Shown here: positions 13,067-51,301 of the stretch, piece by piece | How positions within the stretch are numbered: the first letter of the stretch is position 1 | Layout: each line of letters opens with the position of its first letter | From: Chloropicon primus | Lineage: Eukaryota | Direction: 5' to 3' | DNA length: 64,000 bases | Assembly: GCA_023205875.1 (NCBI GenBank) | Contig: CP060763.1 | Coordinates: forward strand, 62,001 to 126,000 | The notes under the pieces: model-generated | Seen by the model: the letters and a program-made list of their open reading frames with translations, nothing else | What the model was told of the DNA's origin: nothing | Database searches by the model: none | Made by a program: the position numbers and the translations under genes

Positions 13067-14326
13067 CTTGATGCAAAGGAGGAAGAGAGTTCCAGTCCAA
13101 GGGATCACCTCTCTCTGGTCCTAAATCCTCACCAGAACGTCGTAATCTTTCGAGCGAGGGGTCAAACGAAAGAGAATGAGATGAAGATTATAATAATGAC
13201 CCTCAATCACTTCCTCCTTCCCCCGCCGAACGACAAACTCCCGCCGAACCACGCCGTCCTTTCCCTCCCTCGCCCTGGTTTGGCGCCAAACCGCTCGACA
13301 CTCTGAGTCAGGAAGAGTAACTTCACAACTGAATGGGTAAAATTGTAGGCACGATCCGAACAATTAACGTCAAAAAGAGAACCTTAATACGACGATGAGA
13401 GACGTCACATTCGAACGTCCCGTTTAATGTCTCTCATAAAACTAGGGATTTGAATGAAAATGATTTTGATTGTTTATGAGGGTTAGATATTCAAGTAGGA
13501 GACATTACCTTTCGAAAATGTCTCATGTAGAAATGGTCCCCTGAGATGGAAACACTACTGGGGACCCTCGTCGTTTGCCGCGGGGTTTGGTGGTTCGGCT
13601 TCTTTGGTCCGCGGCCTGGCCCTATTCCCTTAATCGATGCCAAGGTTTGCCTCGGAGACCGCGTCTTTCCCTCCGCCACCTTCAAAACCGCTTCCCTCCT
13701 CCTCCTCCTCACTCCTCTTTCTCCAAGGTGAAGCCGAGGTAAGGAATTCATTCCCTTCACCTTGCTTGCTTGAAACGACAACGACGGAGGAGAAAGGTCG
13801 AGTGAAGGATGGCATCACGATATTCTTCGTCTCTTGCTCTTTCCAAAGAGTGTACTCTTGTCGAATTCGACGCAGTGGAGAGGAATCCAGACCAGTGGAC
13901 TCGTCTTGGGTTCCCATCCCTTCCCTGGAACCCAAGACGAGTGAAGAGTGAAGTGAATGCCTCACTTCACTCTTCACTTCACTTCACTTCACTTCACTGC
14001 TCGGAAGACTGCAGGGAGGAACGAACCCGAAATGAACCTCGTCTCTTGCTCTTTTCGAAGCATGGGTCCCGAGGATGGTACTTTGTCCTGATACTGATAC
14101 AACTTTGTTTCCTGCAATGGCGTATGTTTCATGTTTCATGTTTCATGGTTTTCCAAAGGACAGACAGACAGGCACTGAGGTGTGAGGAAGCACAAGAGTG
14201 TGTTCGTTCGTGTCTGCTTGATCACAGAGGTTGGATCCATTGGTGTCTCGTGAGAACTCGAACTCGAACTCACCAACCCACGCCAACCCAAGCAGCTTGA
14301 GTTGTGTGTCAGCTTGACTTGTTCCT

Positions 14327-14370
<44 letters not shown>

Positions 14371-14622
14371 TGTGACGTTGCTGCTTGCTGGTGACATGAA
14401 TTGAATCGAATTGCGTCGTGTTTCGTTGTGTGAAAGAAAAGTATGAGTCTTGCCGTGGTTGCTTGGTTGGGTTGCGGGTCAACCTGAAGGAAGGGAAGGG
14501 AGACAGAAGGTATACGAGGGAGTAGGATGAGTTGTGAGGGAAAGGGTGTCCTGAGGGCACCAGCGAGGACGAGGATGGGGAGGAAATCGAGGAATGGTCT
14601 GAAGCAGGAGGGACGAAGGACC

Positions 14623-17600
14623 ATGGCCAAGAGCCTTCTCTCGGGAACCTACGCGTTGACGCTTTGTATATTAGTACTACTATTGTCGCCCACCAAGGTT
14701 GGAGCTTGGATCACCTTGGACGGAGGCGAGAACGTTACGCTCCACGGGAACACGAACGTGGGGCCCCCGGACACGATGGAGAAGTACGATCTGAACGTGT
14801 ACGGAGACGTGAGAGTGGGAAGAACAGAGAGCCTGGACCCGTTTGCGGTGACGCCGGGCATGCTAGTCGAGGGAGCTATCACTGCTTCGAGGATTGTGCT
14901 CAAGGACAGCGGCAGCGGTGACGCCGAGCTCGACGAGGCTAGCTCCCTCTTGTCGTCCATGGCAGGGGACACCGTGCCCGACTTCGTCTTTGTGGCGACG
15001 GCGGCGGACGTGTCTTCCATGGGGTTCACCGAGAACCACACGGTGGGTTTTTACAGGCAAGAAGGCTCTGAGAGCGATCCGGAGAACATCGCTTTGTCCG
15101 ACATCTTCACGGTGAAGCTTGGCGTCAGGGACCTCGAGGATGGCACGCCGAACAAGGGCCACGTCGACATCAACGTTGCTGGTGACACGTCCAAGTTCGG
15201 ACTCAGGGCCAAGATGGGGGACGGCAACTCGGCGACGTTGACTTTCTCGGAGCAACAGGAGCAGGAGGATCCAGCGAGCGAGGAAGAGCCCATTGGTTTT
15301 CAGTACAGCTTGGGGACGGACAATAGCATGCTTAGCGTGGGGGGAAACTATTCTCTGTTCTCATTCGTGGACGAGAGGCCAAAAGATGAGATGGAAATCA
15401 GGTCAGACCACCTCGCGTCGTACATCGAGGTGCCGAGGGCCAAGCTCAATGCCAGCGCGGACGGAAGCACGACGCTCACGCTGCAGGCGCCCCAATCGAG
15501 TAGGTTGTCCCCGGAATTCAGGCCGGGCGAGGCTGGCGCGAGGATGGAAATGGTCCAAGGGGACACGACCTTTTTCATCGCAAACGTGCCAGAGGCGGAG
15601 CAGGATGTGATCAAGTTTGGCGTCAATGATCACATGGCCATGACGACCGAGGACGGCGATGGCGAGGTCTCCTTCATGGAGGTGTACAAGTCAGCGATAC
15701 AGCTGATTCCTCAAGAGAAGGCTGGCGCAGTGGTGATCGGTGCAGAGGACGCTGACACGGGGAGTGGGGGCTCTGACTACAAAGGCGCGACCTTGAGCAT
15801 AGGAAAGTTGGAAGTTATGCACCAATCGGACGAGCAGTCTCCTTACGGCGAGTACGTCGAAGGGATGGTCCAGAACTTTGGGGTGATGGAGCTCACAACA
15901 AAGTATACGACTGGCAATTACCCTCTCTACATGTCGAGCGGTAACCATGTCAAGGTTCATGCTCCAAACTTGTATGTCGGGGATGGCCTCGTCAGTGAGA
16001 TTCCATCGCCGGGGGCAGAGCCGGGAGCTGTCGTCCTCGGGGGAGGGGCGATCCAGCTGAACGGCACAGGAGTCACGCAGACGGGCGCTGACTTTCCTCT
16101 GTACCTTCATTCAGAAAATACCGAAGGCAATTTGGCTTCTTCGGGTGTCAGGCTGAGCGGAACGTATAAATTTGGTGTTGGGGACATCAATGTTATCGAC
16201 GACGCCTCTGCTGGCGCCGACGAGTCTTCTGAGGTCGAAAGATCGCCAAGGAGGATCACATCCGCGGGCTCACTGAGAATCACCGCCTTTGACCAGGAGC
16301 ACTCCCCGGACGAGATTCCAAGCTACGGGAGTGGAGAGGCACAGGAGGCAGATGGAAACATGTTCGGTTACGAGCTCTACGTGGATGGTAACGAGGTCAC
16401 AGGAAAGGCCAGGATGAGGGTCGGGAATGCAGTTTGGCACGATGGCTACGAAGAGACGTTCACTGATGTAGTGATGGACGGCGTCTCCATAGTAGAAGAA
16501 GCCCCCTCGGGTCCTGCCACCCTCATCGCTGTAGGCTCAGACCTGGGAAGTGTCAGCGGCGCACCCACAGAGGACCAGTCTGTGGACCCAGTGCCTCAGC
16601 ACCACTCTGGACTTTTAGTGATTCGTTCCAAGAGGGAAGTCAGGATGGACGATGGCTCCAAGCTCAGGATCGGTGTTCCCTCGAACTCTATTCACATCAA
16701 TGGTACAGATCAGTCCATGTACGGTGACGACGAGTCAGAGCCCTTGAAGTTTCACGCGCACTTGGGCCTTGAAGTCGGGTCTGCAGAGGGAGCCATGAGA
16801 TCAGCAATCAGGGAGAGAGTCACCAAGGAATCCAACCCAGAACTCGGTACGTTTGGTCACCCAAGCGTTTTGCTGAGGGACATCGAAGTCGATGGGTGCA
16901 GCATTCCAAATGCAACAGCAGATCTTGGAGACGACTACACGAAAAGCATCTATGCTGCCAGGAAAAGCTGTGTTTCCAGGATTGGAATTGTGCCTCCCCC
17001 AGAAGGAGAAACACCAAACAAGGAATTGCAGGCTTCGATGGGACGATACGAGGAGGACGGCGAGTTCAAAGAGCTTTATCTGACGTCCAATAATTATGTT
17101 GATATTGATGGGAGGTCCAGGCTGAAAATTGGAGGGATGTTCTTTGATGGAGCTGGTGCTCACCCGGATGACTACGAGAACGCTTTCAGTGAGTCGTCTG
17201 ATCGCCAGCCTTCTGATCAGTGGGATTACTCGAAGGGAGATAGGAAGAATACCCTTCGTGGAGACTCTGGCTTGTTCATCGACGGTGGTCGCCAGAGTGG
17301 CAACGTCAGCATCTCTGGCGGATCAAGCAGAGAGGATGCAGTAACAGGAGGAAACGTCATTATCAGCTCAGGTGGAAGCGGTGCTGCTGGACTATGGTCA
17401 GGTGACTCGGGCGACGTTTCCATCGCTACTAGTCCAGGAGGAGAAGATTTCGGAAAGAGTGGTACCGCGTCTTTTGCAAGTGGAAACACAACAGATGGGC
17501 ACACCGGAGAGGTCGTGATATCGTCTGGATTTGCGCATGGGCAAGCTTCTGACTCGGGGAGCATCTCTCTCACCGTTGGAGCATCTGAGGGCGGAAAAGC

Positions 17601-20600
17601 TGGTAACATGAATTTCCGGATTCAGCCCTCTCAAGGCTCTGGGAGAGACGGGGGAAGTACTTACTTGACCTCTGGATCAGCCCAAGGTAGGGGTGGTGCT
17701 GGAGGCAGCGTCTTCATAGCGTCCGGTTCTGCTGCAGAAACGGCAGAGGCCGCTGGGGGTGACATTAACATCAACGCCGGGGATTCGCTAACAGCGAAAG
17801 ATAAGCTGGGTGCCCACGGTGGTCAGGTTGTCATCAGAAGTGGCCATTCCGCTGGAAACTCTGGCGGCGAAATAATAATCGTCTCTGGGAACACCACTGC
17901 AATGAACGAGGGGCAAGCAACTGACATTGATGGCGGATACACAAGAAGTGGAAACATCAACATCACGTCTAGTTATGTTGACAATGCATACACAGGGTCT
18001 GTCTCCATGACTACCGGGGATTCGCTTACTGGAATCTCTGGGGATGTGAAGATTGGTGCAGGCTCAGGTATGCAGAGTGGGGCTAATGTCACTATTTCTG
18101 CTGGAGGCGCCCACGACAATACTGCCAGTCCTGTTGCTGTACAATCTGGAACGAGCTACTACAAAGAGATGAGGGAGCTAGCTGATGTTGAGGCTGCACC
18201 AATGGCAGGATCTGTCCAGCTCGTCGGTGGAAGGGCAGCAAATGGCATTTATGGCCACGGAGGAAACGTTACAACTTCTGGCGGTCAAGGAGCATCCTAT
18301 GGAGGTCACGCCCATCTCATTGGTGGAAATGTCAATGATGGATCTGGTGCACACACGAGGTTGCACGGAGGCTCCTTGTTTCTTTCCTCAGGTTCCGGGA
18401 CATCTGGGAAAGTTCATTCCGGAAGCATTGAGATGAAAACATCGGATGGAGGAAGTGCTGGAGGAGCAGGTTATGTAAACATAACTACGGGGGTCTCCAA
18501 CAGCATGTTTAACTGCGCTGGGCAATACGGCGTGGAAGAATGCATCGGAGGAAATATTACGATGGCCTCTGGGGATAATTTGGCATCAGACGGGGCATTC
18601 CTGGTTCTCAATGCAGGTAGCACGAAAACCTTTTCAGCTCTGACTGAGAACACTGAGCGTGAAACGCCTATTGGTGGACCTATTCTAATGAATGCTGGGT
18701 CTGCATCCTTTGGAGTGGGAGGACAAATAAACATCACTGCAGGTTCTGGGTCTGCCCAGCCTGAGAGGGAAATATTTGGAACTAGGTATGGCGCAGATCA
18801 CAGCCTTCTTGACGAAGCAGGCAAAGTCGGCTACGGTGGTAATGTGACCATCCGAGGCGGAGCTTCTGCATATGATCACGGAGGCAGCGTCAACTTGGTT
18901 TCTGGTGAACCAGGACTTGGTGTTTACTCAACATCAGGAAATATTACCATGACTACTCCGGATGCCACAAACTCAAAGCCAGCTGGTGCAATTCCAGATG
19001 GACCTGACAAGGGTATTAGTGGTAGCATATTCATGAGGACAGGAGAGGGAAAGGAAAGCTCAGGGAATGTTTCAATTTTCACTGGAAATTCAACGGAAGA
19101 TAATACGGGCCATATTTTGCTTCACGGTGGATTTTCCACGTTTGGTGATGGAGGGAGTCTTAATTTCACGTCTGGGCACGGTGGCATAATCAACAATGGA
19201 ACAGACGCTGATGCAAGACTTGATGATGGGGATATCAATCTCGAGGCAGGAAGAAGAGTTGTCATGACAGGTGATTTTGCTGTCGAATTGTATGGTGGAA
19301 ATGCCCTCGATGACACCTACGTAGAATCAACGGAGGAATCAACCCTGAAATATGGTTCAGTAAATGGCAAATACAACGGTGGATATTTGTACTTCCAAGG
19401 AGGAGACTCCGAGCATGCATCCGGGGGAAACGTCACAATGAGGGGTGGAAAGGGTTTGAGCAACAATGGAGGTGATATTAGCCTGGTTACAGGTGTTGGA
19501 AACTCTACAACACAAGTGGAGACCTACAATTCTGAGTACTACTCCCATGACCCAAGTCTTTATAGCAGAGCCAATTCTAACTATGAACACGACAGAGATG
19601 GTCATATTAGAGCAACAAATAACCTTGCATCAAGTGGAGAGTTGAGTCTTGCCACAGCTGATGCCTTTCCTCATATGAACAGAAACTTTTCATCCGGAGT
19701 AAGTGGATCAGCATCACTTCGAACTGGTGCCTCAGGAAGGGGTGATTCTGGGTCACTCACATTTTCAACTGGGGATGCAGTCATGGGTGTTGGTGGAAAC
19801 ATCTCCTTCAGCATCGGCAATGGAACTGATTCAACTGGATATGGAGAATCGGCTGGAAAAGACGGCGGTAGTTTTGTTGTTCGTGCGGGCACTGGCACTG
19901 CTGCAGATCAAAGTGGAGGCCATGTCAATCTCTCTGCGGGATTGGGCGTCTCCTCTTCAAACTCTACGACAAGGGGAGGAAATGTTGTGATAGCTGGGGG
20001 TAATGCAGAAGCTGCAAAGGAGAGGGCGCTCCTGATGTCCCAGGAACCATGGCTTCCGTATGAACGTTTCATCAATGACAACTCAAGCATTGGATACCGA
20101 AGGAACAACGAGAGTCACTCATCTCATGGAAACGAAGATGGCGGAAAAGTCCAACTTCGTGGTGGAGATTCTGACAGAGGTATTGGAGGATCAATTACGC
20201 TTACTGCTGGTGAAAGTCAAATGAACGATGGAGGGAACATCTTACTTACTGGAGGAAAATCAAATGGTGTCCTTGGCGTATGCAATGATTCTATGACTGA
20301 TTGTGACAATGGTGGACACATATATATCTCTGGAGGACAAGCTTTGGCTGCACCTGGAGGTAGCATTGCCCTCACCAGTGGGTTCAGCACATCCACATCT
20401 TCTGGTGACATCACGATAGCTACGCCCACATCTGGCTTTTACGGCATCAGTGGATCCCTCGAACTCCTCTCAGGAAACACAACTGGAGGCAATTCTGGAT
20501 CGTTCTCGTTTGAATCTGGCCAGGCTACAAATGGTGCTGGCGGGATCATTTCACTTAAAGTTGGCGCAGGTGACACAGGTGACGGTGGTAATGTTCTCAT

Positions 20601-23600
20601 CGCTGCAGGTGAGACCACCGATGCTGACTCCGCTGGTGGCAAGATTGCACTCACTGGTGGCATGGGTTCTGATGATTCATCTCCTCATGGTGGTGTTGGT
20701 GGAGACATCGTGTTGACTGGTGGCGAGGCCCTCGGTAATGATGATCAGCATGACGTGGGTGGTGACATCTACTTGTCTGGTGGTCAGGCAGCCTCTGCCC
20801 GCGGTGGTGATCTCGAATTCAACACTGGTTACAGTGAGTCCACCAACAGTGGTTCCATGAGATTGAGCACCGTTGACTCTGGTTCTTCTGGTGTGAGTGG
20901 ATCCATGTCTCTCAGGACGGGTAACACTACCTTAGGAGAGTCTGGTGCGATTGAGCTTGAGACTGGTGTTGGCACTGGAGGCTCTGGTGGCGACCTTCGT
21001 TTCAAGGTTGGTACCGGTAACTCTGGTGACGGTGGTGATATCCTGTTCAGGGCAGGTGAGACCACTGATGCTGACTCTGCTGGTGGCAAGATTGCACTTA
21101 GTGGAGGCAAGGGTTCTAGCAATTCCTCTGATCATGGTGGTGTTGGTGGAGACATCTTGTTGACTGGTGGTGAGGCCCTCGGCAATGATGACCAGCATGA
21201 CGTGGGTGGTGACATCTACTTGTCTGGTGGTCAGGCAGCCTCTGCCCGCGGTGGTGACATTGAATTCAACACTGGTTACAGTGAGTCCACCAACAGTGGC
21301 TCCATGAGATTGAGTACTGTGAATTCTGGTTCTTCTGGTGTGAGTGGATCCATGTCTCTCAGGACGGGTAACACTACCTTAGGAGAGTCTGGTGCGATTG
21401 CTCTTGAGACTGGTGTTGGCACTGGAGGCTCTGGTGGCGACCTTCGTTTCAAGGTTGGTACCGGTAACTCTGGTGACGGTGGTGATATCCTGTTCAGGGC
21501 AGGTGAGACCACCGATGCTGACTCTGCTGGTGGCAAGATTGCACTCACTGGTGGCGAAGGCTCAGATGGTCTGTCTGCGTATGGTGGTCGTGGTGGAGAA
21601 ATTATTGTGAATGGAGGCGAAGCGTTTGGACTCAATAGCGAAACCGATATTGGAGGCGACATCCATATTTCTGGTGGTCAAGCCTCCTCTGCCCGTGGTG
21701 GTGACATTGAGGTGAACACAGGATACAGTGAGTCCACCAACAGTGGCTCCATGAGGTTGAGCACTCAAGAATCGGGTTACACGGGTGTTAGTGGGAATAT
21801 CAGTTTAGCAACTGGGAACGCATATGATGGTGGGTCTGGCTTGATTGAGCTTGAGACTGGTGAGGGTATTGGAGGGTCTGGTGGCGACCTTCGTTTCAAG
21901 GTTGGTACCGGTTACTCTGGTGACGGTGGTGATATCCTGTTCAGGGCAGGTGAGACCACTGATGACGATTCTGCTGGTGGCAAGATTGCACTCACTGGAG
22001 GCAAGGGTTTGAGTCCTGTTGATTTTGGAGGTGTTGGTGGAGACATCTTGTTGACTGGTGGTGAAGCACTAGGACAATCATCAACTTCTGATTTTGGTGG
22101 TGACATCTACTTGTCTGGTGGTCAGGCAGCCTCTGCCCGCGGTGGTGACATTGAATTCAACACTGGTTACAGTGAGTCCACCAACAGTGGCTCCATGAGA
22201 TTGAGTACTGTGAATTCTGGTTCTTCTGGTGTGAGTGGATCCATGTCTCTCAGGACGGGCAACACCACAAACGGAGAGTCTGGTGCGATTTCTCTTGAGA
22301 CCGGTGAGGGTGTTGATGGTTCTGGTGGCGACCTTCGTTTCAAGGTTGGTACCGGAGATGCTGAGAAAGGTGGTGATATCCTTTTAAATGCTGGAGAATC
22401 TAGTGCTCCTTTTGATGGAGTGGGTGGAAACATCAATTTGACAGCAGGAGCTCAAACCAATAATGGCATGCTTTCTTACAAAAAAAGTGGCGGTGGAATC
22501 ATATCTTTAAGGGGAGGAGAAGCACATGCTACTGCGCCCGGAGAAGGTGTTGGTGGGGATATTTTCTTGACAGGAGGTCGAGCACAAATGGACCGTGGTG
22601 GTGACATTGCGATCAGCACTGGATACAGTAAGTCCACCAACAGTGGTTCCATGAGATTACGCACAGACGACGCTGGAAATCTTGGTGGTATCAGTGGCAA
22701 CATAAGTGTAAAAACTGGAAGCACGTCATCCGGAGAGTCTGGCTTGATTGAGCTTGAAACTGGTGAGGGTGTTGATGGTTCTGGTGGTGACCTTCGTTTC
22801 AAGGTTGGTACCGGTAACTCTGGTGACGGTGGTGATATCCTGTTCAGGGCAGGTGAGACCACCGATGCTGACTCCGCTGGTGGCAAGATTGCACTTAGTG
22901 GAGGCATGGGTTCTGATGATTCCACTCCTGATGGTGGTATGGGCGGTGACATCTTGTTGACTGGTGGCGAGGCCCGTGGCAGCTATAAACATAATGACGT
23001 GGGTGGCGACATCTACTTGTCTGGTGGTCAGGCAGCCTCTGCCCGCGGTGGTGACATTGAATTCAACACAGGATTCAGTGAGTCCACGGACAGTGGTTCC
23101 ATGAGATTGAGCACTGTCAACGCTGGTTCTTCTGGTGTGAGCGGCAACATAAGTGTCAAAACTGGAACCACGACATCCGGAGAGTCTGGTGTGATTGAGC
23201 TTGAGACTGGTGTTGGCAATGGAGGTTCTGGTGGCGACCTTCGTTTCAAGGTTGGTACCGGTAACTCTGGTGACGGTGGTGACATCCTGTTCAGGGCAGG
23301 TGAGACCACCGATGCTGACTCTGCTGGTGGCAAGATTGCACTTAGTGGAGGCAAGGGTTCTGATGATTCATCTCCTCATGGTGGTGTTGGTGGAGACATC
23401 TTGTTGACTGGTGGCGAGGCCCTCGGTAATGATGACCAGCATGACGTGGGTGGTGACATCTACTTGTCTGGTGGTCAGGCAGCCTCTGCCCGCGGTGGTG
23501 ACATTGAATTCAACACTGGTTACAGTCAATCCACGGACAGTGGTTCCATGAGATTGAGTACTGTGAATTCTGGTTCTTCTGGTGTGAGTGGATCCATGTC

Positions 23601-26600
23601 TCTCAGGACGGGTAACACCACATCAGGAGAGTCTGGCTTGATTGCTCTTGAGACTGGTGAGGGCGTTGATGGTTCTGGTGGCGACCTTCGTTTCAAGGTT
23701 GGTACCGGTAACTCTGGTGACGGTGGTGATATCCTGTTCAGGGCAGGTGAGACCACCGATGCTGACTCTGCTGGTGGCAAGATTGCACTTAGTGGAGGCA
23801 AGGGCTCTAGTGATCACACTTATCATGGTGGTGTTGGTGGAGACATCCTGTTGACTGGTGGTGAGGCCCTCGGCAATGATGACCAGCATGACGTGGGTGG
23901 TGACATCTACTTGTCTGGTGGTCAGGCAGCATCTGCCCGTGGTGGTGATATCGAATTCAACACTGGTTACAGTCAATCCACCAACAGTGGTTCCATGAGA
24001 TTGAGCACCGTTGACTCTGGTTTTTACGGTGTGAGCGGATCCATGTCTCTCAGGACGGGCAAGACCACATCTGGAGAGTCTGGTGCGATTGCTCTTGAGA
24101 CTGGTGAGGGTGTTGACGGTTCTGGTGGCGACCTTCGTTTCAAGGTTGGTACCGGTAACTCTGGTGACGGTGGTGACATCCTGTTCAGGGCAGGTGAGAC
24201 CACCGATGCTGACTCTGCTGGTGGCAAGATTGCACTTAGTGGAGGCAAGGGTTCTGATGATTCCTCCGCTCATGGTGGTGTTGGTGGAGACATCTTGTTG
24301 ACTGGTGGCGAGGCCCTCGGCAATGATGACCATCATGACGTGGGTGGTGACATCTACTTGTCTGGTGGTCAAGCAGCATCTGCCCGCGGTGGTGACATTG
24401 AATTCAACACAGGATACAGTGCGTCCACCGACAGTGGCTCGATGAGAATGAGCACCGTTGACTCTGGTTCTTCTGGTGTGAGTGGCAATATCAGTATAGC
24501 AACTGGCAAAACCACATCTGGAGAGTCTGGCTTGATTGTTCTTGAGACTGGTGAGGGTGTTGATGGTTCTGGTGGCGACCTTCGTTTCAAGGTTGGTACC
24601 GGTAACTCTGGTGACGGTGGTGATATCCTGTTCAGGGCAGGTGAGACCACTGATGCTGACTCCGCTGGTGGCAAGATTGCACTTAGTGGAGGCAAGGGAA
24701 CTGATGATTCCTCCGCTCATGGTGGTGTTGGTGGAGACATCCTGTTGACTGGTGGCCAGGCGCTCGGCTCTGATAATCAGACTGACGTTGGTGGTGACAT
24801 CTACTTGTCTGGTGGTCAAGCAGCATCTGCCCGCGGTGGTGACATTGAATTCAACACAGGATACAGTGCGTCCACCAACAGTGGCTCGATGAGAATGAGC
24901 ACCGTTGACTCTGGTTCTTCTGGTGTGAGTGGGTCCATGTCTCTCAGGACGGGCAAGACCACATCTGGAGAGTCTGGATTTATTGCTCTTGAGACTGGTG
25001 AGGGCGTTGATGGTTCTGGTGGCGACCTTCGTTTCAAGGTTGGTACCGGTAACTCTGGCCATGGCGGTGATATCCTTTTCAGGGCAGGTGAGACCACTGA
25101 TGCTGACTCTGCTGGAGGTAATATTGCACTCACTGGTGGCGAAGGCTCAGATGGTCTGTCTGCGTATGGTGGTCGTGGTGGAGAAATTATTGTGAATGGA
25201 GGCGAAGCGTTTGGACTCAATAGCGAAACCGATATTGGAGGCGACATCCATATTTCTGGTGGTCAAGCCTCCTCTGCCCGTGGTGGTGACATTGAGGTGA
25301 ACACAGGATACAGTGAGTCCACCAACAGTGGCTCCATGAGATTGAGCACCGTTGACTCTGGTTCCTCTGGTGTGAGTGGATCCATGTCTCTTAGGACGGG
25401 TAACACCACATCAGGAGAGTCTGGCTTGATTGCTCTTGAGACTGGTGAAGGTGTCGGAGGCTCTGGTGGCGATGTCCACGTTTCAGTTGGTGCTGGAGAC
25501 TTTGGAGATGGCGGTGAGATCAAGCTTACTGCAGGATCCACTGTCCACGATGGTTCCACTGGAGGAAAGATCACCCTCCACGCAGGAGCTGGCGAAAATG
25601 AAGAAGCTGGCCCCTTGGGCATCTCTGGTGGCGACATTGAGTTGATTGCCGGAGAAGCTTTTTACGGACTGGGTGGCACCAATGATTTTGGTGGTAATAT
25701 CCTTGTGTCTGGTGGTGAGTCTGAGATGGGCATTGGTGGCAACATAGAGTTGAAGAGTGGTTACGGTGTTGCCCAGACTAGTGGTCAAATCGACATCCAC
25801 ACGGCTGATGCTGGTTTGTCTGGTGTAAGTGGTCTTATGAGCATGAGCACCGGCAACACCACCAATGGCGATTCTGGCGTAGTCGATGTGAGCACAGGCA
25901 GTGCCATCAATGGTGCTGGAGGTCACATCGCTGCGAGCGTTGGAACAGGCAACAAGGGCAATGGAGGCGATGTGTATGTCCGTGCCGGTGAGACCACTGA
26001 TGCGGCATCTTCCGGCGGCAACATTAAGTTAGTCGGCGGCATGGGTAGCAGCACTGCTCACACCGGTGGCGGTGTTGGCGGCGACATCTTGTTGACCGGT
26101 GGCAAGGCCCTTGGCTCTAATGACCAGACTGACGTGGGTGGTGACATCTACTTGTCTGGTGGTCAAGCGTCCTCTGCCCGCGGCGGGGACGTTGAGGTGA
26201 GCACAGGATACAGTGAGTCCACGGACAGTGGCTCGATGAGAATGAGCACCGTTGACTCTGGTTCTTCTGGTGTGAGCGGATCCATGTCGCTCAGGACGGG
26301 CAACACCACATCAGGAGAGTCTGGCTTGATTGCTCTTGAGACTGGTAGAGGCAATGGAGGCTCTGGTGGTGATCTTCGTTTCAAGGTTGGTACCGGTAAC
26401 TTTGGTGACGGTGGTGATATCCTGTTCAGGGCAGGTGAGACCACCGATGCTGACTCCGCTGGTGGCAAGATTGCACTTAGTGGAGGCAAGGGAACTGATG
26501 ATTCCTCCTCTCATGGTGGTGTTGGTGGAGACATCTTGTTGACTGGTGGTGAGGCCCTCGGCAATGATAATCAGACTGACGTGGGTGGTGACATCTACTT

Positions 26601-38600: not shown

Positions 38601-41600
38601 GAGGGTGTTGACGGTTCTGGTGGTGACCTTCGTTTCAAGGTTGGTACCGGTAACTCTGGTGACGGTGGTGACATCCTGTTCAGGGCAGGTGAGACCACGG
38701 ATACGGACTCTGCTGGTGGCAAGATTGCACTTAGTGGAGGCAAGGGCTCTAGTAATCACACTTATCATGGTGGAGTTGGTGGAGACATCTTGTTGACCGG
38801 TGGCGAGGCCCTCGGTAATGATGACCAGCATGACGTGGGTGGTGACATCTACTTGTCTGGTGGTCAGGCAGCCTCTGCCCGCGGTGGTGATCTCGAATTC
38901 AACACAGGATACAGTCAATCCACGGACAGTGGCTCCATGAGAATGAGCACCGTCGACTCTGGTTTTTATGGTGTGAGTGGATCCATGTCTTTCCGGACGG
39001 GCAAGACTACAAACGGAGAGTCTGGTGCGATTGAGCTTGAGACTGGTGAGGGTGTCGGAGGCTCTGGTGGCGACCTTCGTTTCAAGGTTGGTACCGGTAA
39101 CTCTGGTGACGGTGGTGATGTTCTTATTGCTGCCGGTGAGACCACATCCAATTCTGCTGTCGGAGGTAGAGTTTCTGTGGTTTCTGGTGCTGCTTCTGAT
39201 GGAGCTGGTGGAGACATTTCTCTGAGAGTTGGTCTTGGAAATCATGGCAAAGGTGGTGATGTTCTCATTGCTGCTGGAGAGACCACTGATGACGACTCCG
39301 CTGGTGGCAAGATTGCACTTAGTGGAGGCAAGGGCTCTAGTGATCACACTTATCATGGTGGTGTTGGTGGAGACATCTTGTTGACTGGTGGTGAGGCCCT
39401 CGGCAATGATGACCAGCATGACGTGGGTGGTGACATCTACTTGTCTGGTGGTCAGGCAGCCTCTGCCCGCGGCGGTGACATTCATTTGTCTGGAGGTCAA
39501 AGTGCCCTTTCCCGCGGTGGTGACATTGAATTCAAGACTGGATACAGTCAATCCACGGACAGTGGCTCCATGCGATTGAGCACCGTTGACTCTGGTTCTT
39601 CTGGTGTGAGTGGATCCATGTCTCTCAGGACGGGCAACACCTCATCAGGAGAGTCTGGCTTAATTGAGCTTGAGACTGGTCAAGGTGATGGAGGTTCTGG
39701 TGGTGACCTTCGTTTCAAGGTTGGTACCGGTAACTCTGGTGACGGTGGTGATATCCTGTTCAGGGCAGGTGAGACCACCGATGCTGACTCTGCTGGTGGC
39801 AAGATTGCACTTAGTGGAGGCAAGGGCTCTAGTGATCACACTTATCATGGTGGTGTTGGTGGAGACATCGTGTTGACTGGTGGTGAGGCCCTCGGTAATG
39901 ATGACCAGCATGACGTGGGTGGTGATATCTACTTGTCTGGAGGTCAGGCAGCCTCTGCCCGCGGTGGTGACATTGAATTCAAAACTGGTTACAGTGAGTC
40001 CACCAACAGTGGCTCCATGCGATTGAGCACCGTTGACTCTGGTTCTTCTGGTGTGAGTGGATCCATGTCTCTCAGGACGGGTAACACCACATCAGGAGAG
40101 TCTGGTGCGATTGAACTTGAGACTGGTGAGGGTGTTGATGGTTCTGGTGGTGACCTTCGTTTCAAGGTTGGTACCGGTAACTCTGGTGACGGTGGTGACA
40201 TCCTGTTCAGGGCAGGTGAGACCACCGATGCTGACTCTGCTGGTGGCAAGATTGCACTTAGTGGAGGCAAGGGTTCTGATGATTCCTCCGCTCATGGTGG
40301 TGTTGGTGGAGACATCTTGTTGACTGGTGGTGAGGCCCTCGGCAATGATGACCAGCATGACGTGGGTGGTGACATCTACTTGTCTGGTGGTCAGGCAGCC
40401 TCTGCCCGCGGTGGTGACATTGAATTCAAAACTGGTTACAGTGAGTCCACCAACAGTGGATCCATGCGATTGAGCACCGTTGACTCTGGTTCTTCTGGTG
40501 TGAGCGGATCCATGTCTCTTTGGACGGGTAACACCACATCAGGAGAGTCTGGCTTGATTGCTCTTGAGACTGGTGAGGGTGTTGATGGTTCTGGTGGTGA
40601 CCTTCGTTTCAAGGTTGGTACCGGTAACTCTGGTGACGGTGGTGACATCCTGTTCAGGGCAGGTGAGACCACCGATGCTGACTCTGCTGGTGGCAAGATT
40701 GCACTTAGTGGAGGCAAGGGTTCTGATGATTCCTCCTCTCATGGTGGTGTTGGTGGAGACATCGTGTTGACTGGTGGCGAGGCCCTCGGCAAGGATAATC
40801 ATACTGACGTTGGTGGTGACATCTACTTGTCTGGTGGTAAAGCGTCCTCTGCCCGCGGTGGTGATATCGAATTCAACACTGGTTACAGTGAGTCCACCAA
40901 CAGTGGTGCCATGCGATTGAGCACCGTTGACTCTGGTTTTTATGGTGTGAGCGGATCCATGTCTCTCAGGACGGGCAAGACTACAAACGGAGAGTCTGGC
41001 TTGATTGAGCTTGAGACTGGTGAGGGTGTCGGAGGCTCTGGTGGCGACCTTCGTTTCAAGGTTGGTACCGGTAACTCTGGTGACGGTGGTGATGTTCTTA
41101 TTGCTGCCGGTGAGACCACATCCAATTCTGCTGTCGGAGGTAGAGTTTCTGTGGTTTCTGGTGCTGCTTCTGATGGAGCTGGTGGAGACATTTCTCTGAG
41201 AGTTGGTCTTGGAAATAGTGGCAAAGGTGGTGATGTTCTTATTGCTGCTGGAGAGACTACGGATTCAGATTCCACAGGAGGTAACGTCGTTCTTGAAGGA
41301 GGAATGGGAAGCAGTGACGATGGAGTAGGAGGTGGAGTTGGTGGCGACCTCTCCTTTACAGGTGGTGACGCTCTTGGTGCTGCTGGTGCTTCTGATGATG
41401 GTGGCGACATATCATTGACTGGAGGTCAAGCAGCTGCAGCCAAGGGTGGTTCCATTTCAATCATGAGTGGATATAGTCAATCTTCTACAAGTGGTGGAAT
41501 TTTGATTGGAACTGACAATGCTGGCGTGTCTGGTGTGAGTGGATCCATGTCCCTATCGACAGGAAATGCTACTGCTGGAATGTCGGGCAAGATTGAGATT

Positions 41601-44600
41601 GAGACCGGTGAGGGTGTTGGAGGCTCTGGTGGCGACATTAGCTTCGCTGTTGGCACTGGTAATCTCGGTGATGGTGGTGGAGTGTACGTGACTGCTGGAG
41701 AGTCCACAGACTCTCGCAGTCAGGGTGGCAATATCACTATGACAGCTGGCCGCGGATCAGGTAACAGTGTGACCGGAGGTGACATTGTGCTGACTGCCGG
41801 TGAGTCTCATAATGAAAACTCTTCTGCAGATCAAAGCGAGATGTATGGCGGATCTGTTTACATTCAGAGTGGACACAGCACTGGAATCACGAGCGGTGAC
41901 GTTAGTATCAGCACAGACAACGCAGGCGTTTCCGGTGTGAGCGGATCCATGTCCCTTTACACGGGCAAGACCACTGCCGGCACGTCTGGCTTGATTGAGC
42001 TTGAGACTGGTGAAGGTGTCGGAGGCTCTGGTGGCGATGTCCACGTTTCAGTTGGTGCTGGAGACTTTGGAGATGGCGGTGAGATCAAGCTTACTGCAGG
42101 ATCCACTGTCCACGATGGTTCCACTGGAGGAAAGATCACCCTCCACGCAGGAGCTGGCGAGAATGAAGAAGCTGGCCCCTTGGGCATCTCTGGTGGCGAC
42201 ATTGAGTTGATTGCCGGAGAAGCTTTTTACGGACTGGGTGGCACCAATGATTTTGGTGGTAATATCCTTGTGTCTGGTGGTGAGTCTGAGATGGGCATTG
42301 GTGGCAACATAGAGTTGAAGAGTGGTTACGGTGTTGCCCAGACTAGTGGTCAAATCGACATCCACACGGCTGATGCTGGTTTGTCTGGTGTAAGTGGTCT
42401 TATGAGCATGAGCACCGGCAACACCACCAATGGCGATTCTGGCGTAGTCGATGTGAGCACAGGCAGTGCCATCAATGGTGCTGGAGGTCACATCGCTGCG
42501 AGCGTTGGAACAGGCAACAAGGGCAATGGAGGCGATGTGTATGTCCGTGCCGGTGAGACCACTGATGCGGCATCTTCCGGCGGCAACATTAAGTTAGTCG
42601 GCGGCATGGGTAGCAGCACTGCTCACACCGGTGGCGGTGTTGGCGGCGACATCTTGTTGACCGGTGGCGAGGCCCTTGGCTCTAATGACCAGACTGACGT
42701 GGGTGGTGATATCTACTTGTCTGGTGGTCAAGCCTCCACTGCCCGCGGCGGGGACGTTGAAGTGAGCACAGGATACAGTGAGTCCACCAACAGTGGCTCC
42801 ATGAGATTGAGCACCGTTGACTCTGGTTCTTCTGGTGTGAGCGGATCCATGTCCCTTTACACGGGCAAGACCACTGCCGGCACGTCTGGCTTGATTGAGC
42901 TTGTGACTGGTGAAGGTGTCGGAGGCTCTGGTGGCGATGTCCACGTTTCAGTTGGTGCTGGAGACTTTGGAGATGGCGGTGAGATCAAGCTTACTGCAGG
43001 ATCCACTGTCCACGATGGTTCCACTGGAGGAAAGATCACCCTCCACGCAGGAGCTGGCGAGAATGAAGAAGCTGGCCCCTTGGGCATCTCTGGTGGCGAC
43101 ATTGAGTTGATTGCCGGAGAAGCTTTTTACGGACTGGGTGGCACCAATGATTTTGGTGGTAATATCCTTGTGTCTGGTGGTGAGTCTGAGATGGGCATTG
43201 GTGGCAACATAGAGTTGAAGAGTGGTTACGGTGTTGCCCAGACTAGTGGTCAAATCGACATCCACACGGCTGATGCTGGTTTGTCTGGTGTAAGTGGTCT
43301 TATGAGCATGAGCACCGGCAACACCACCAATGGCGATTCTGGCGTAGTCGATGTGAGCACAGGCAGTGCCATCAATGGTGCTGGAGGTCACATCGCTGCG
43401 AGCGTTGGAACAGGCAACAAGGGCAATGGAGGCGATGTGTATGTCCGTGCCGGTGAGACCACTGATGCGGCATCTTCCGGCGGCAACATTAAGTTAGTCG
43501 GCGGCATGGGTAGCAGCACTGCTCACACCGGTGGCGGTGTTGGCGGCGACATCTTGTTGACCGGTGGCGAGGCCCTTGGCTCTAATGACCAGACTGACGT
43601 GGGTGGTGATATCTACTTGTCTGGTGGTCAAGCCTCCTCTGCCCGCGGCGGGGACGTTGAAGTGAGCACAGGATACAGTGAGTCCACCAACAGTGGCTCG
43701 ATGAGATTGAGCACCGTTGACTCTGGTTCTTCTGGTGTGAGCGGATCTATGTTTCTCATGACGGGCAACACCACATCAGGAGAGTCGGGAATGATTGCTC
43801 TTGTGACTGGTGAGGGTGTTGGAGGTTCTGGTGGTGACCTTCGTTTCAAGGTTGGTACCGGTAACTCTGGTGACGGTGGTGATATCCTGTTCATGGCAGG
43901 TGAGACCACTGATGCTGACTCTGCTGGTGGCAAGATTGCACTTAGTGGAGGCAAGGGCTCTAGTGATCACACTTATCATGGTGGTGTTGGTGGAGACATC
44001 GTGTTGATTGGTGGCGAGGCCCTTGGCAATGATGATCAGCATGACGTGGGTGGTGACATCTACTTGTCTGGTGGTCAGGCAGCCTCTGCCCGCGGTGGTG
44101 ATATCGAATTCAAAACTGGTTACAGTGAGTCCACCAACAGTGGCTCCATGAGTTTGAGCACTCAAGAATCGGGTTACACGGGTGTAAGTGGGAATATCAG
44201 TTTAGCAACTGGTCTCGCACATGATGGTGAGTCTGGCTTGATTGAGCTTGAGACTGGTGAGGGTGTCGGAGGCTCTGGTGGCGACCTTCGTTTCAAGGTT
44301 GGTACCGGTAACTCTGGTGATGGTGGTGATGTTCTTATTGCTGCCGGTGAGACCACATCCAATTCTGCTGTCGGAGGTAGAGTTTCTGTGGTTTCTGGTG
44401 CTGCTTCTGATGGAGCTGGTGGAGACATTTCTCTGACAGTTGGTCTTGGAAATAGTGGCAAAGGTGGTGATGTTCTCATTGCTGCTGGAGAAAGCACTGA
44501 TGACGACTCCGCTGGTGGCAAGATTGCACTTAGTGGAGGCAAGGGCTCTAGCAATTCCTCTGATCATGGTGGTGTTGGTGGAGACATCTTGTTGACTGGT

Positions 44601-47600
44601 GGTGAGGCCCTCGGCAATGATGACCAGCATGACGTTGGTGGTGATATCTACTTGTCTGGTGGTCAGGCAGCCTCTGCCCGCGGTGGTGATATCGAATTCA
44701 ACACAGGATACAGTGAGTCCACCAACAGTGGCTCCATGCGATTGAGCACCGTTGACGCTGGTTCTTCTGGTGTGAGTGGATCCATGTCTCTCAAGACAGG
44801 CAGCACGACATCAGGAGAGTCTGGTGCGATTGCTCTTGAGACTGGTGAGGGTGTTGACGGTTCTGGTGGTGACCTTCGTTTCAAGGTTGGTACCGGTAAC
44901 TCTGGTGACGGTGGTGATATCCTGTTCAGGGCAGGTGAGACAACTGATGGTAACTCCGCTGGTGGCAAGATTGCACTCACTGGTGGCATGGGCTCTACTG
45001 TTGATGGTGGTGTTGGTGGAGACATCTTGTTGACTGGTGGCGAGGCCCTCGGCTTTGACGACGAGACTGACGTTGGTGGTGACATCTACTTGTCTGGTGG
45101 TCAGGCAGCCTCTGCCCGCGGTGGTGATATCGAATTCAACACAGGATACAGTCAATCCACCAACAGTGGCTCCATGCGATTGAGCACCGTTGACTCTGGT
45201 TCTTCTGGTGTGAGTGGATCCATGTCTCTCAGGACGGGCAACACCACATCAGGAGAGTCTGGCTTAATTGAGCTTGAGACTGGTCAAGGTGATGGAGGTT
45301 CTGGTGGTGACCTTCGTTTCAAGGTTGGTACCGGTAACTCTGGTGACGGTGGTGACATCCTGTTCAGGGCAGGTGAGACCACGGATATAGACTCTGCTGG
45401 TGGCAAGATTGCACTTAGTGGAGGCAAGGGCTCTAGTGATCACACTTATCATGGTGGTGTTGGTGGAGACATCGTGTTGACTGGTGGTGAGGCCCTCGGC
45501 AATGATGACCAGCATGACGTGGGTGGTGACATCTACTTGTCTGGTGGTCAGGCAGCCTCTGCCCGCGGTGGTGACATTGAATTCAAAACTGGATACAGTG
45601 AATTTAGTGACAGTGGCTCCATGCGATTGAGTACTGTCAACGCTGGTGACTATGGTGTGAGTGGCAATATCAGTATATCAACTGGCAACACCACATTAGG
45701 CGAGTCTGGCTTCATCGAGCTTGAGACTGGTCAAGGTGTTGATGGTTCTGGTGGCGACCTTCGTTTCAAAGTTGGTACCGGTAACTCTGATGACGGTGGT
45801 GATATGCTGTTCAGGGCAGGTGAGACTACCGATGCTGACTCTGCTGGTGGCAAGATTGCACTTAGTGGAGGCAAGGGCTCTAGTGATCACACTTATCATG
45901 GTGGTGTTGGTGGAGACATCTTGTTGACTGGTGGCGAGGCCCTCGGCAATGATGACCAGCATGACGTGGGTGGTGACATCTACTTGTCTGGAGGTCAGGC
46001 AGCCTCTGCCCGCGGTGGGGATATGGAATTCAACACAGGATACAGTCAATCCACCAACAGTGGTTCCATGAGATTGAGCACCGTTGACTCTGGTTTCTCT
46101 GGTGTGAGCGGATCCATGTCTCTTAGGACGGGTAACACCACATCAGGAGAGTCTGGCTTGATTGAGCTTGAGACTGGTGAGGGTGTTGGAGGTTCTGGCG
46201 GCGACCTTCGTTTCAAGGCTGGTACCGGTAATTCTGGTGACGGTGGTGACATCCTGTTCAGGGCAGGTGAGACCACCGATGCTGACTCTGCTGGTGGCAA
46301 GATTGCACTTAGTGGAGGCAAGGGCTCTAGTGAGTCCTCCGCTCATGGTGGTGTTGGTGGAGACATCGTGTTGACTGGTGGCGAGGCCCTCGGCAATGAT
46401 GACCATCATGACGTTGGTGGTGACATCTACTTGTCTGGTGGTCAGGCAGCCTCTGCCCGCGGTGGGGATATGGAATTCAACACAGGATACAGTCAATCCA
46501 CGGACAGTGGTTCCATGCGATTGAGCACCGTTGACTCTGGTTCTTCTGGTGTGAGCGGATCCATGTCTCTCAGGACGGGCAACACCACATCAGGAGAGTC
46601 TGGCTTAATTGAGCTTGAGACTGGTGAGGGTGTCGGAGGTTCTGGTGGCGACCTTCGTTTCAAGGTTGGTACCGGTAACTCTGGTGACGGTGGTGATGTT
46701 CTTATTGCTGCCGGTGAGACCACATCCAATTCTGCTGTCGGAGGTAGAGTTTCTGTGGTTTCTGGTGCTGCTTCTGATGGAGCTGGTGGAGACATTTCTC
46801 TGACAGTTGGTCTTGGAAATAGTGGCAAAGGTGGTGATGTTCTTATTGCTGCTGGAGAGACCACTGATGACGACTCCGCTGGTGGCAAGATTGCACTTAG
46901 TGGAGGCAAGGGCTCTAGCAATTCCTCTGATCATGGTGGTGTTGGTGGAGACATCTTGTTGACTGGTGGTGAGGCCCTTGGCAATGATGACCAGCATGAC
47001 GTGGGTGGTGACATCTACTTGTCTGGTGGTCAGGCAGCCTCTGCCCGCGGCGGTGACATTCATTTGTCTGGTGGTCAAGGTGCCCTTTCCCGCGGTGGTG
47101 ACATTGAATTCAAAACTGGATACAGTCAATCCACCAACAGTGGTTCCATGCGATTGAGTACTGTCAACGCTGGTCAATATGGTGTGAGTGGATCCATGTC
47201 TCTTAGGACGGGTAACACCACATCAGGAGAGTCTGGCTTGATTGAGCTTGAGACTGGTAAGGGTGTCGGAGGCTCTGGTGGCGACCTTCGTTTCAAGGTT
47301 GGTACCGGTAACTCTGGTGACGGTGGTGACATCCTGTTCAGGGCAGGTGAGACCACCGATGCTGACTCTGCTGGTGGCAAGATTGCACTTAGTGGAGGCA
47401 AGGGTTCTGATGAGTCCTCCGCTCATGGTGGTGTTGGTGGAGACATCTTGTTGACTGGTGGCGAGGCCCTCGGCAATGATGACCATCATGACGTGGGTGG
47501 TGACATCTACTTGTCTGGTGGTCAGGCAGCCTCTGCCCACGGTGGGGATATGGAATTCAACACAGGATACAGTCAATCCACGGACAGTGGCTCCATGCGA

Positions 47601-49361
47601 TTGAGCACCGTTGACTCTGGTTCTTCTGGTGTGAGTGGATCCATGTCTCTCAGGACGGGCAACACCACATCAGGAGAGTCTGGCTTGATTACTCTTGAGA
47701 CTGGTGAGGGTGTTGGAGGTTCTGGTGGCGACCTTCGTTTCAAGGTTGGTACCGGTAACTCTGGTGACGGTGGTGACATCCTGTTCAGGGCAGGTGAGAC
47801 TACCGATGCTGACTCTGCTGGTGGCAAGATTGCACTTAGTGGAGGCAAGGGCTCTAGTGATCACACTTATCATGGTGGTGTTGGTGGAGACATCGTGTTG
47901 ACTGGTGGTGAGGCCCTCGGCAATGATGATCAGCATGACGTTGGTGGTGACATCTACTTGTCTGGTGGTCAGGCAGCCTCTGCCCGCGGTGGGGATATGG
48001 AATTCAACACTGGATACAGTGAGTCCACCAACAGTGGCTCCATGCGATTGAACACTGTTGACTCTGGTTCTTCTGGTGTGAGTGGATCCATGTCTCTCAA
48101 GACAGGCAGCACGACATCAGGAGAGTCTGGCTTGATTGCTCTTGAGACTGGTGAGGGTGTTGACGGTTCTGGTGGTGACCTTCGTTTCAAGGTTGGTACC
48201 GGTAACTCTGGTGACGGTGGTGACATCCTGTTTAGGGCAGGTGAGACCACCGATGCTGACTCTGCTGGTGGTAAGATTGCACTTAGTGGAGGCAAGGGCT
48301 CTAGCAATTCCTCTGATCATGGTGGTGTTGGTGGAGACATCTTGTTGACTGGTGGTGAGGCCCTCGGCAATGATGACCAGCATGACGTGGGTGGTGATAT
48401 CTACTTGTCTGGTGGTCAGGCAGCCTCTGCCCGCGGTGGTGATATCGAATTCAACACAGGATACAGTGAGTCCACCAACAGTGGCTCCATGCGATTGAAC
48501 ACTGTTGACTCTGGTTCTTCTGGTGTGAGTGGATCCATGTCTCTCAAGACAGGCAGCACGACATCAGGAGAGTCTGGTGCGATTGAGCTTGAGACTGGTG
48601 GTGATTCGCTGATGAGTGGTGATGTTCACTTGTTTTCTGGAGATGTTTACGGTGGAAAGTCAGGTAATGTCGTTTTAGAAACTGGCGAATCTTCTGGCGG
48701 TAGAAGTGGAAGCATACAACTTCTTGCTGGAGTTAGTAGCTATGATAAGGGTGGTGATGTCGAGGTCAATGCAGGGCAATCAACATCAGACAGTGATGGT
48801 GCTGGCGGTGACATTTCCTTGACATCAGGCCGAGGACACAGGGGTGGAAAAGGTGGAGACTTAAATATTGTTGGAGGTATAAGTGGAGAGCTTTATGGAA
48901 GAGGAGGGGACGTTTCAATTGATGGTGGCCACAGTGAAAGTGGAGTGCATGGCCAAGTTCGAATTGGAACAAAGAGTGATGAAGTTTACATGGGTGAAAT
49001 TGACTACTCTTCAGATCTTTTCTTCTATGGGCACAGCTTTGCTTATGGAGCAATGAGTGTTGGAGAAGAAAGAGGTACACCGGTAACAGAGCACTTCTCG
49101 TACATGACGGAAGAAGTTACGATTGGTACTCTGTTGCCTTCTCAATCTGTATCCTTAGTTTTACAGGTTGATGGTGTGAGAGTGGAGGACAATGTGAGTG
49201 TAAACTTCAGTGGTAGACTTGGAGGAAGAATTATAATGTCTTCCTCTATCATTGCAGACGGCGAAGTCGAGATTAATCTGGTGCATTCAGGATCTCCACC
49301 TGTTCCCTATGACATACCTAGCGGTACCTTCAGGGTGAATGTGTTCCAGTATCGCGACTAG
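14623..49361 (+). CDS. Giant intronless putative secreted Gly/Ser/Asp/Thr-rich repeat protein, ~11,578 aa after removing two 1-nt insertions (~26683 and 36917)
   Basis: ORFs of 4058, 3466 and 4190 aa carry the same repeat and switch frame at single extra bases relative to the repeat consensus. (34739-2)/3 = 11579 codons. Signal peptide MAKSLLSGTYALTLCILVLLLSPTKVGA. Unique C-terminal domain ending TFRVNVFQYRD*. Confidence 0.88.
20340..48600 (+). repeat. Intragenic coding tandem repeat: 447-bp/149-aa basic unit, 900-bp modules and a ~7.9-kb higher-order duplication
   Basis: Offsets of homologous ORF-track entries: 447 (20945/21392; 37127/37574), 900 (34063/34963; 41957/42857), 1795 (24929/26724) and 7894 (33046/40940; 34063/41957). 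Confidence 0.97.
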
Positions 49362-50838: not shown

Positions 50839-50875
<37 letters not shown>

Positions 50876-51167
50876 AAACAAAAACAAAAACAAAAACGCG
50901 TCAGCCGCCACCACCACCACCGTTACCGTCACCTCTCTCTACGTGTGCGGAAGCGGAGAAGCGTCGTAGCCATGGCACGCCTTCCTTTCCTTGCTTTCCT
51001 CGCAACCCAACCCAGCCCAACCCAACCCAAATGGTCTTTCCATGGTCCTTACCGAGATCAATGACGCCTGGAATGGCAACAGAAGGGTCTTGCGCTTTGG
51101 CGACGTGAGGAGCCACCACCGCCAGCATGGCGAGGGTCACCACCAAGGTCTTCGTGCTGTGCTTCAT
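50041..51167 (-). CDS. Protein disulfide isomerase-like (signal peptide, one WCGHC thioredoxin domain, ERp29 C-terminal domain); exons 51167-51053, 50827-50490, 50340-50041, ~250 aa
   Basis: EFYAPWCGHCKRLTPEY and FGVTGFPTLK. The helical C-terminus (GRHEDLDKLAQEF..YYLLMTKI..GEGYIEKESARIGRI..NVLDAF) is typical of ERp29c. Both introns are GT-AG and phase-consistent. Confidence 0.9.
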
Positions 51168-51296: not shown

Positions 51297-51301
51297 CGGA
51301 G

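Follow-up and report, generated by a model that had tools for sequence, protein, structure and literature searches.

The 64,000-nucleotide stretch of Chloropicon primus DNA analysed here (GenBank assembly GCA_023205875.1, contig CP060763.1, positions 62,001 to 126,000 of the forward strand; hereafter the window) raises the question of whether positions 14623..49361 of its + strand hold one giant gene or several, and what kind of protein such a gene would make. Three long open reading frames (ORFs) follow one another there in successive frames, at 14488–26703 (with the ATG at 14623), 26543–36946 and 36741–49361, and give ~11,580 codons when two one-base breaks are read across. Probably, this is one intact Chloropicon gene encoding a secreted homotrimer, in which ~600 repeats are predicted to form a three-chain stiff rod, likely a surface fibre. 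At ~35 kb the gene is more than ten times longer than any neighbour (the longest neighbouring ORF, a kinesin, has at most 1,050 codons), as a first-pass annotation of this DNA had noted, and the size given there, ~11,600 aa and ~1.1 MDa, agrees with the ~11,580 aa, 1.12 MDa and pI 4.2 calculated for the full chain with X at both breaks.

A probable single chain across two frame breaks

The first-pass annotation attributed the three frames to two indels splitting a single gene, and each break does carry one extra base relative to its sister copies in the repeat array, the first at 26683 (+), after which ORF1 stops at 26703, and the second at 36917 (+), after which ORF2 stops at 36946. The context of the first break is seen once, against 44 copies of five sister variants, and that of the second once, against 34 sister copies. 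Among 6,414 array-tile alignments, 379 contain frame changes, 346 of them running across one or the other break; the remaining 33 mostly involve one tile, whose own frame is open. No in-frame stop occurs across 11,500 codons. Introns at the breaks are unneeded because a single base is all that separates each site from its sister copies, and programmed frameshifting was rejected because no slippery heptamer lies within 40 bases of the breaks. Errors in a long-read consensus typically show up as lone one-base insertions in repeats too similar for polishing with short reads, and the two breaks, judged from the sequence itself, are likely assembly errors. The description of the gene as intronless holds in that the frames are open throughout.

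The ratio of nonsynonymous to synonymous differences (pN/pS) was calculated for 27 exact 149-aa repeat units against their consensus, giving 0.34 in ORF1 (8 units), 0.28 in ORF2 (7 units) and 0.33 in ORF3 (12 units), where the copies compared are not independent of one another. Synonymous changes account for 95 of the 215 distinct variant codons, versus about a quarter of sites. These values show all three ORFs to be under purifying selection in frame (pN/pS ~0.3). An orthologue of the Chloropicon roscoffensis type was confirmed for one of 121 candidates, a metagenome contig (L001) whose frame is open, and intronless over that length, for 2,050 codons before the contig ends where the array begins. 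Its comparison with the window gene gave pN 0.148 and pS 0.744, with dN 0.165 and dS saturated. Because selection is seen in all three frames and the orthologue is conserved, the locus is best read as one long coding gene. For the other end of the protein, the relative P0012, whose cluster includes C. roscoffensis WZN60019.1, is 80% identical to the C-terminal 330 aa; WZN60019.1 itself is a 319-aa hypothetical protein that matches the last part of the giant protein only. The window unit is 70% identical to the relative's unit and 92% identical to its own consensus, which indicates concerted evolution of the repeat units within each lineage.

Upstream pieces of L001 (308–848) match window positions 12342–12923 at 83–84%, so the upstream neighbour, presumably TRAPP-subunit-like, is syntenic. 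None of seven exact ORF versions of the gene was found in the protein collection searched, no long orthologue occurs among its proteins of 4,201–5,000 aa (the collection stops at 5,000 aa), and a search with the C-terminal tip gave no long orthologue among those of 444–2,000 aa. No description of the gene or of the repeat family was found in the literature searched, and the passages searched in two Chloropicon genome papers make no mention of either.

Read from the N-terminus, the chain opens with a signal peptide and 860 unique residues, continues with ~600 repeats of ~15 aa and closes with a 90-aa C-terminal domain; all of these are encoded on the + strand. The signal peptide is predicted from hydropathy at aa 1–28 (14623..14706) and ends in V-G-A before W29; VGA/WITL is kept in the orthologue and the residues upstream differ, and alternative in-frame ATG starts lie at 14527 and 14575. 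It is followed by a unique acidic region (aa 29–890, 14707..17292) that has no family match and is 66–90% identical per 100 aa to L001, in line with the signal peptide and unique acidic stretch annotated at first pass. Compared with the relative P0004, the N-terminal region gave no alignment outside the repeats. Strongly hydrophobic 19-residue windows occur at the N-terminus only, and no C-terminal transmembrane segment was found, the hydropathy maximum in the last 200 aa being 1.08, which bears out the earlier statement that none is obvious. The whole chain is rich in Gly (23.6%) and Ser (13.5%; Ser+Thr 21%) and has 1,513 Asp and Glu against 589 Lys and Arg. Across 14623–49361 the DNA has a strong positive GC skew (~0.2) and a G+C content of 47–55%, compared with mostly 55–60% in the flanks, both of which are attributable to the Gly codons.

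Predicted three-chain rod and its tip

The repeats follow the motif [GS]G-x-h-x-h-x-x-G, which first appears at aa 891 (~17293), close to the ~17270 given by the first-pass annotation; 591 copies were counted by regular expression and ~614 when misses are included. Spacing between motifs is most often 15 residues (n = 307), then 17 (n = 71), followed by 21, 20 and 16. Degenerate ~15-aa strand repeats with long unique loops occupy aa 891–1990 (17293..20592), a region colinear with the unnamed proteins P0046 and P0001–P0003, and are followed by a homogenised array of 447-bp (149-aa, nine-repeat) units and variant blocks (20593..48600). The array had been described as ~28 kb of near-identical 149-aa units. 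Its 447-bp period is confirmed; however, the 27 exact units have a mean pairwise DNA identity of 89%, the basic repeat is ~15 aa, nine of them making up the higher-order 149-aa unit, and the array is mosaic, with variant blocks, one Cys-rich insert and one 5.5-kb duplication. The two copies of this duplication (30930..36462 and 38824..44356, both +) are 96% identical, with 1,187 bp exact. The single insert, ~120 aa with eight Cys (30518..30883, +; cysteines at 30614–30796), sits in the loop slot of one repeat and is also present in P0012, and in-frame searches that included Pfam, NCBIfam and PDB sequences gave no family match for it. In the window it lies ~6,200 aa upstream of the C-terminus. 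In C. roscoffensis-type sequences it lies about one unit from the C-terminus (P0012), or a plain unit stands in its place (P0169, P0180), which reflects either a genuine reshuffling of the array or a collapse of repeats when short reads were assembled.

TLP-12 fibres, taken up below, bear a dense shell of O-glycans on fixed Ser positions; in the window protein Ser+Thr reaches 35–45% at several strand-end and loop positions, and no Ser is invariant. The abundance of NxS/T sequons noted earlier is at chance level overall (96 observed, 94 expected; 61 in the array versus 72.6 ± 7.2), and enrichment is confined to aa 891–1990 (26 versus 15 ± 3.2).

Modelling of the repeats as monomer and trimer had been suggested in the first-pass annotation. 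An AlphaFold2 monomer model of 300 aa of repeats, built from a 75-row alignment, has a mean predicted local distance difference test (pLDDT) score of 81 and no secondary structure assigned by DSSP, and in the model of the C-terminal part DSSP strands occur in the tip and almost none in the repeats. A monomer model that is well scored and lacks any intrachain sheet looks like one chain of an interwoven trimer. Compared with 48,161 solved chains, the repeat model matched four at Z ≥ 2, namely HylP1, HylP, Hyal_Sk and one tailspike, and these matches are weak (2c3f and 6wv2 Z 3.5, 4ufq Z 3.0; root-mean-square deviation (rmsd) 6.0–7.8 Å). HylP1, HylP and Hyal_Sk are described as triple-stranded β-helices (PMC11669647), and in the T4 gp5 spike each strand is reported to bond with the other two chains (PMC4576200). 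Among the models in BFVD, three from uncultured tailed phages matched the repeat model at E values of 1e-7 to 1e-4. Foldseek against the PDB found nothing at E ≤ 0.001 for the C-terminal model and did not match the repeat model to any chain. A homotrimer model of the last 330 aa (three copies) scored an ipSAE of 0.72, versus 0.00 for the best of three controls; 21 of 30 solved homo-pairs and 0 of 23 single chains attained the mark for this score, which was calibrated on two-copy microbial cases. Contact agreement among the trimer runs is 87%, and pLDDT is 58–60. The lack of intrachain sheet, the fold matches to three-chain phage fibres and the trimer score together lead us to predict that the repeats form a three-chain triple-stranded β-helix.

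The C-terminus, given earlier as a unique stretch of ~130 aa, is indeed unique, at ~150 aa, and contains a folded domain of 90 aa. The last unique repeats (final motif ~48900) and a neck (48601..49088, +) lead into this domain (49089..49358, +), which is modelled as a β-sandwich with pLDDT 73–90. Its best match is the C-terminal domain of the tailspike KP32gp38 (Z 9.0, rmsd 2.3 Å over 85 aa), which, according to PMC13082707, is necessary and sufficient for trimerisation. The next matches, the trimeric β-sandwiches of discoidin I and the H-type lectins HPA and SLL-2, score Z 5.1–6.4, below the tool's trust mark of 8. Other tailspike tips score similarly (LKA1 gp49 Z 5.8, phi297 gp61 Z 5.9, AP22 gp54 Z 5.1), the lyase HylP1 matches weakly (Z 4.5), and 34 BFVD models match at E ≤ 0.001. 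The tip is thus predicted to be a trimerisation domain with the fold of the tailspike LEC domain. The same tip is found in P0060 and P0012, and by inspection in P0004.

Comparison with known systems places the protein nearest to TLP-12 and to phage tailspikes. TLP-12 was reported from cryo-EM as a glycofibril in which three chains interweave, with a GSxxSx7 repeat, a 9.6 Å rise per repeat, two sides and a C-terminal ICA domain, with candidates of ~20,000 aa in Amoebophrya and other alveolates (bioRxiv 10.1101/2025.09.30.679562). Both are giant (10,000–20,000 aa) Gly/Ser-rich short-repeat protist proteins with a C-terminal folding module, and the size criterion given for TLP-12 is >10,000 residues, compared with ~11,580 aa across the breaks here; the three-chain triple β-helix is seen in TLP-12 and is predicted here. 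However, the TLP-12 repeat has 12 residues, whereas the present one has a period of 15–21 with a variable loop and 0 tandem G[ST]xx[ST]x7 pairs; the ICA (Peptidase_S74) domain of TLP-12 is replaced by an LEC-like tip, with no Pfam match in the last 253 aa; and the protein comes from a green alga rather than an alveolate. As far as the main-text description of TLP-12 goes, the window protein is therefore a variant set apart by the absence of both the 12-mer repeat and the ICA domain. Phage tailspikes (KP32gp38 9qrm/6tku, LKA1 gp49, phi297 gp61, AP22 gp54) share the tip fold, its C-terminal place and the predicted trimer interface, but sequence identity is at most 16%, and the window gene has a signal peptide instead of a virion anchor, ~600 repeats and a eukaryotic chromosomal setting. 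No single-chain parallel β-helix enzyme domain scored above Z 2.0 against the repeat model, which covers repeats only. A phage tailspike or prophage identity was rejected on the eukaryotic neighbours (kinesin, PsbP and a spliced thioredoxin-domain gene), the signal peptide and the lack of any PHROG match. The PL16 lyases (HylP1, HylP, Hyal_Sk) and the T4 gp5 spike share the predicted three-chain helix, in contrast to the lack of sequence similarity and the acidic chain of the window protein, whose rod would also be ~30 times longer than the 100-Å gp5 helix (PMC4576200). Membership of the PL16 sequence family was rejected, there being no PDB or Pfam sequence match and the chain being strongly acidic versus a positively charged groove.

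At the sequence level, the earlier statement that no characterised family is recognisable stands: Pfam gave no match below E 0.03 for seven protein pieces and none for 75 aligned repeats, PHROGs and NCBIfam gave no family match for the protein, and the PDB gave none for repeats or C-terminus. It does not stand for the plan, for which TLP-12 is a precedent, nor for the tip, which has a known tailspike fold. A search with the repeat returned 651 cluster representatives at E ≤ 0.001 and 192 at 1e-10, the best 150 being examined; among the stored matches, 149 of 154 have at least five motifs with spacing 15 dominant, some possibly being compositional. These unnamed GG-x-I-x-L-x-x-G proteins, from oomycetes, other protists and uncultured tailed phages, share the motif and its 15-residue spacing, and differ in that stored members have 100–2,250 aa, are mostly fragments, and carry PSI, EGF, Kringle or S74 domains. 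In 27 longer homologues scanned, Peptidase_S74 was found in 4, PSI in 5 (2 above the curated cut-off), EGF in 1 and Kringle in 1; Peptidase_S74 is a triple-β-helix chaperone and was counted for the trimer reading. Named-species homologues come from Aphanomyces astaci and C. roscoffensis, and Atlas neighbours are unnamed clusters labelled, on few records, Oomycota, Bacillariophyta and Uroviricota. No close relatives occur in the viral contigs, GenBank phages or prokaryote genomes searched. In all five parsable proteins (window, P0001–P0003, P0060), Cys-rich inserts occupy the loop that follows the closing Gly. P0001–P0003 are orthologue-like, with the same unit order and a 120–146-aa Cys-rich insert in nearly every unit, of which three of four in P0001 scored as Kringle; these proteins look like a decorated version of the fibre.

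The proposed fibre on the cell and competing readings

In the structure proposed here, each repeat would contribute one short strand (x-h-x-h-x-x) between Gly turns, with two hydrophobic residues pointing to a core shared by three chains, and an outward loop of 6–13 residues rich in Ser, Thr and Asp. Register among the three chains would come from the LEC-like domain, and from there the rod would zip up toward the N-terminus, as phage fibres do; folding from C to N is described as a common rule for β-fibres (PMC4576200). The rod would be ~0.29 µm long at 4.8 Å per strand, or ~0.59 µm if each repeat had two sides as in TLP-12, and would be borne on a cell of 2–4 µm. Because the chain has no membrane anchor, the N-terminal 860 aa may fasten the rod to the wall or to some other structure at the cell surface. 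The loops may carry putative O-glycans and occasional Cys-rich modules, the acidic rod could serve as a spacer or as a stalk for recognition, array length may change by unequal crossing-over, and expression may be restricted to a stage unseen in culture. The roles put forward in the first-pass annotation, namely adhesion, grazer defence or virus shielding, are conjectural.

Several observations weigh against this proposal. Expression finds no support in transcripts or peptides: no RNA data set was listed for 14000–20600, and two putative RNA runs gave no contig over the 3′ end of the gene, although one of them contained the spliced neighbour; since such contigs show presence only, this is evidence neither way. 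The fold matches of the repeats are weak (Z 3–3.5, rmsd 6–8 Å), the trimer interface is confident only at residues 181–330 of the modelled piece, and its score may reflect likeness to solved tailspikes. Many of the Gly-rich matches in the repeat search may be compositional. Each of two short-read runs disagrees with the window at sites other than the breaks, which makes real alleles possible. Finally, a smooth wall surface is diagnostic of the genus (PMC5656628) and does not fit a dense constitutive coat.

The last point bears on where the fibre stands. In culture, Chloropicon is smooth-walled and lacks flagella (PMC5656628), yet its flagellar gene set is reported as nearly full with the flagellate unobserved (PMC6731263, PMC12301720), and for this reason a stage-restricted role is a serious rival. 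The same fibre might be part of the flagellar hairs or scales of a cryptic flagellate stage, haploid or gamete, and not of the vegetative wall. Another prasinophyte is described as alternating between coccoid diploid and scaly flagellate haploid forms (PMC13213038), and the named distant homologue from A. astaci comes from a zoospore-forming oomycete. However, a direct link to a flagellar stage is lacking, and TLP-12-type giants have no assigned structure either; this placement is regarded as possible but tentative.

The breaks could also be real in this strain or haplotype, leaving a recently broken allele that makes a chain of at most 4,026 aa without the trimerisation tip. The source is apparently heterozygous or imperfectly polished, each short-read run disagreeing with the window at its own set of sites; repeat arrays are prone to instability, and cells in culture may be able to do without a gene of 35 kb. 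The two runs, which may be the window's own source, cover the unique ends of the gene (97–98% of words, with contigs across the 3′ end), and 31-mers without the extra base at the breaks would be unique to these copies. On the other side, stops are absent from the 11,500 codons, pN/pS is equal on both sides of the breaks, and two lone one-base insertions within a repeat beyond short-read polishing match the pattern of long-read consensus error. A broken allele is therefore judged unlikely, and the gene is conserved in the sister species under either view.

It is less probable still that each chain folds its repeats on its own into a two- or three-sided β-solenoid, resembling a TpsA adhesin or an RTX roll, with only the tip, or nothing, trimerising. 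Alternating hydrophobic strands with Gly turns suit solenoids in general, and the trimer model is confident near the tip only. However, the repeats lack intrachain sheets in both AlphaFold2 monomer models, each of the three trimer runs gives ~3,900 interchain contacts, S74 chaperones are present in homologues, and the hydrophobic autocorrelation is 0.31 at lag 15, −0.04 at lag 12 and −0.10 at lag 9, corresponding to a period of 15 and no signal at 9. RTX β-roll adhesins have a nonapeptide repeat period; this identity was rejected on the lag-9 value and the absence of a Pfam match. The first-pass annotation had offered a very long β-solenoid or a triple-β fibre; the monomer and fold matches, the trimer and the tip predictions favour the latter and make a single-chain solenoid less likely.

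A released glycan-binding decoy or polysaccharide-degrading rod, like a phage hyaluronate lyase or H-type lectin, would suit the matches to HylP1 (repeats) and to discoidin I, HPA and SLL-2 (tip) and the absent anchor, but is very improbable given the acidic chain versus the basic grooves of PL16 lyases (PMC11669647), the best-matching LEC domain having no autonomous capsule binding according to PMC13082707, and hundreds of near-identical units that fit a spacer better than an enzyme.

A streamlined 17-Mb genome devotes 35 kb (0.2%) to one predicted fibre, and two species keep its gene under selection, each homogenising its own repeat. Annotation misses the gene, the public C. roscoffensis record comprising its last 319 aa only, as a hypothetical protein. 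The finding would add green algae to alveolates as bearers of giant triple-β-helix fibres, here built on a different repeat and with a foldon of the phage-tailspike type; it would pose the folding problem of three 1.1-MDa chains waiting in the endoplasmic reticulum (ER) for their C-termini, and would open a concrete way into the surface biology and the hidden life stage of a picoalga abundant in the ocean. A broader and rather doubtful extension is that the giant is a well-assembled member of an unnamed fibre family common to green algae, stramenopiles and tailed phages, with a triple-β-helix stalk whose loop slot accepts plug-in modules (Kringle, Cys-rich) and with foldons that can be exchanged (LEC-like or S74), and that it builds a surface hair of a never-observed flagellate or sexual Chloropicon stage. 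In that case a transcript of the giant gene would be a direct marker of this stage, and the repeat family a candidate for the unidentified hair filaments of protist swimmers.

Neighbouring features of the window

The convergent neighbour at 50041–51170 (−) encodes a secreted thioredoxin-domain protein resembling protein disulfide isomerase, whose 149-base intron is shown by an RNA contig, the spliced form being at depth 509. That an ER folding helper adjoins a giant secreted gene may be chance. Four tandem arrays lie between genes (2462–2901, 6239–6594, 10144–10661 and 51298–52283), with units of 160–182 bp that are 88–99% identical within each array; their likeness in period hints at a common mechanism or at small duplications arising in assembly. 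A 262-bp segment occurs twice, at 52301–52562 and 54544–54805, with 96% identity, and is possibly a small dispersed element; a related reverse piece near 62300–62500 is suggested by translations.

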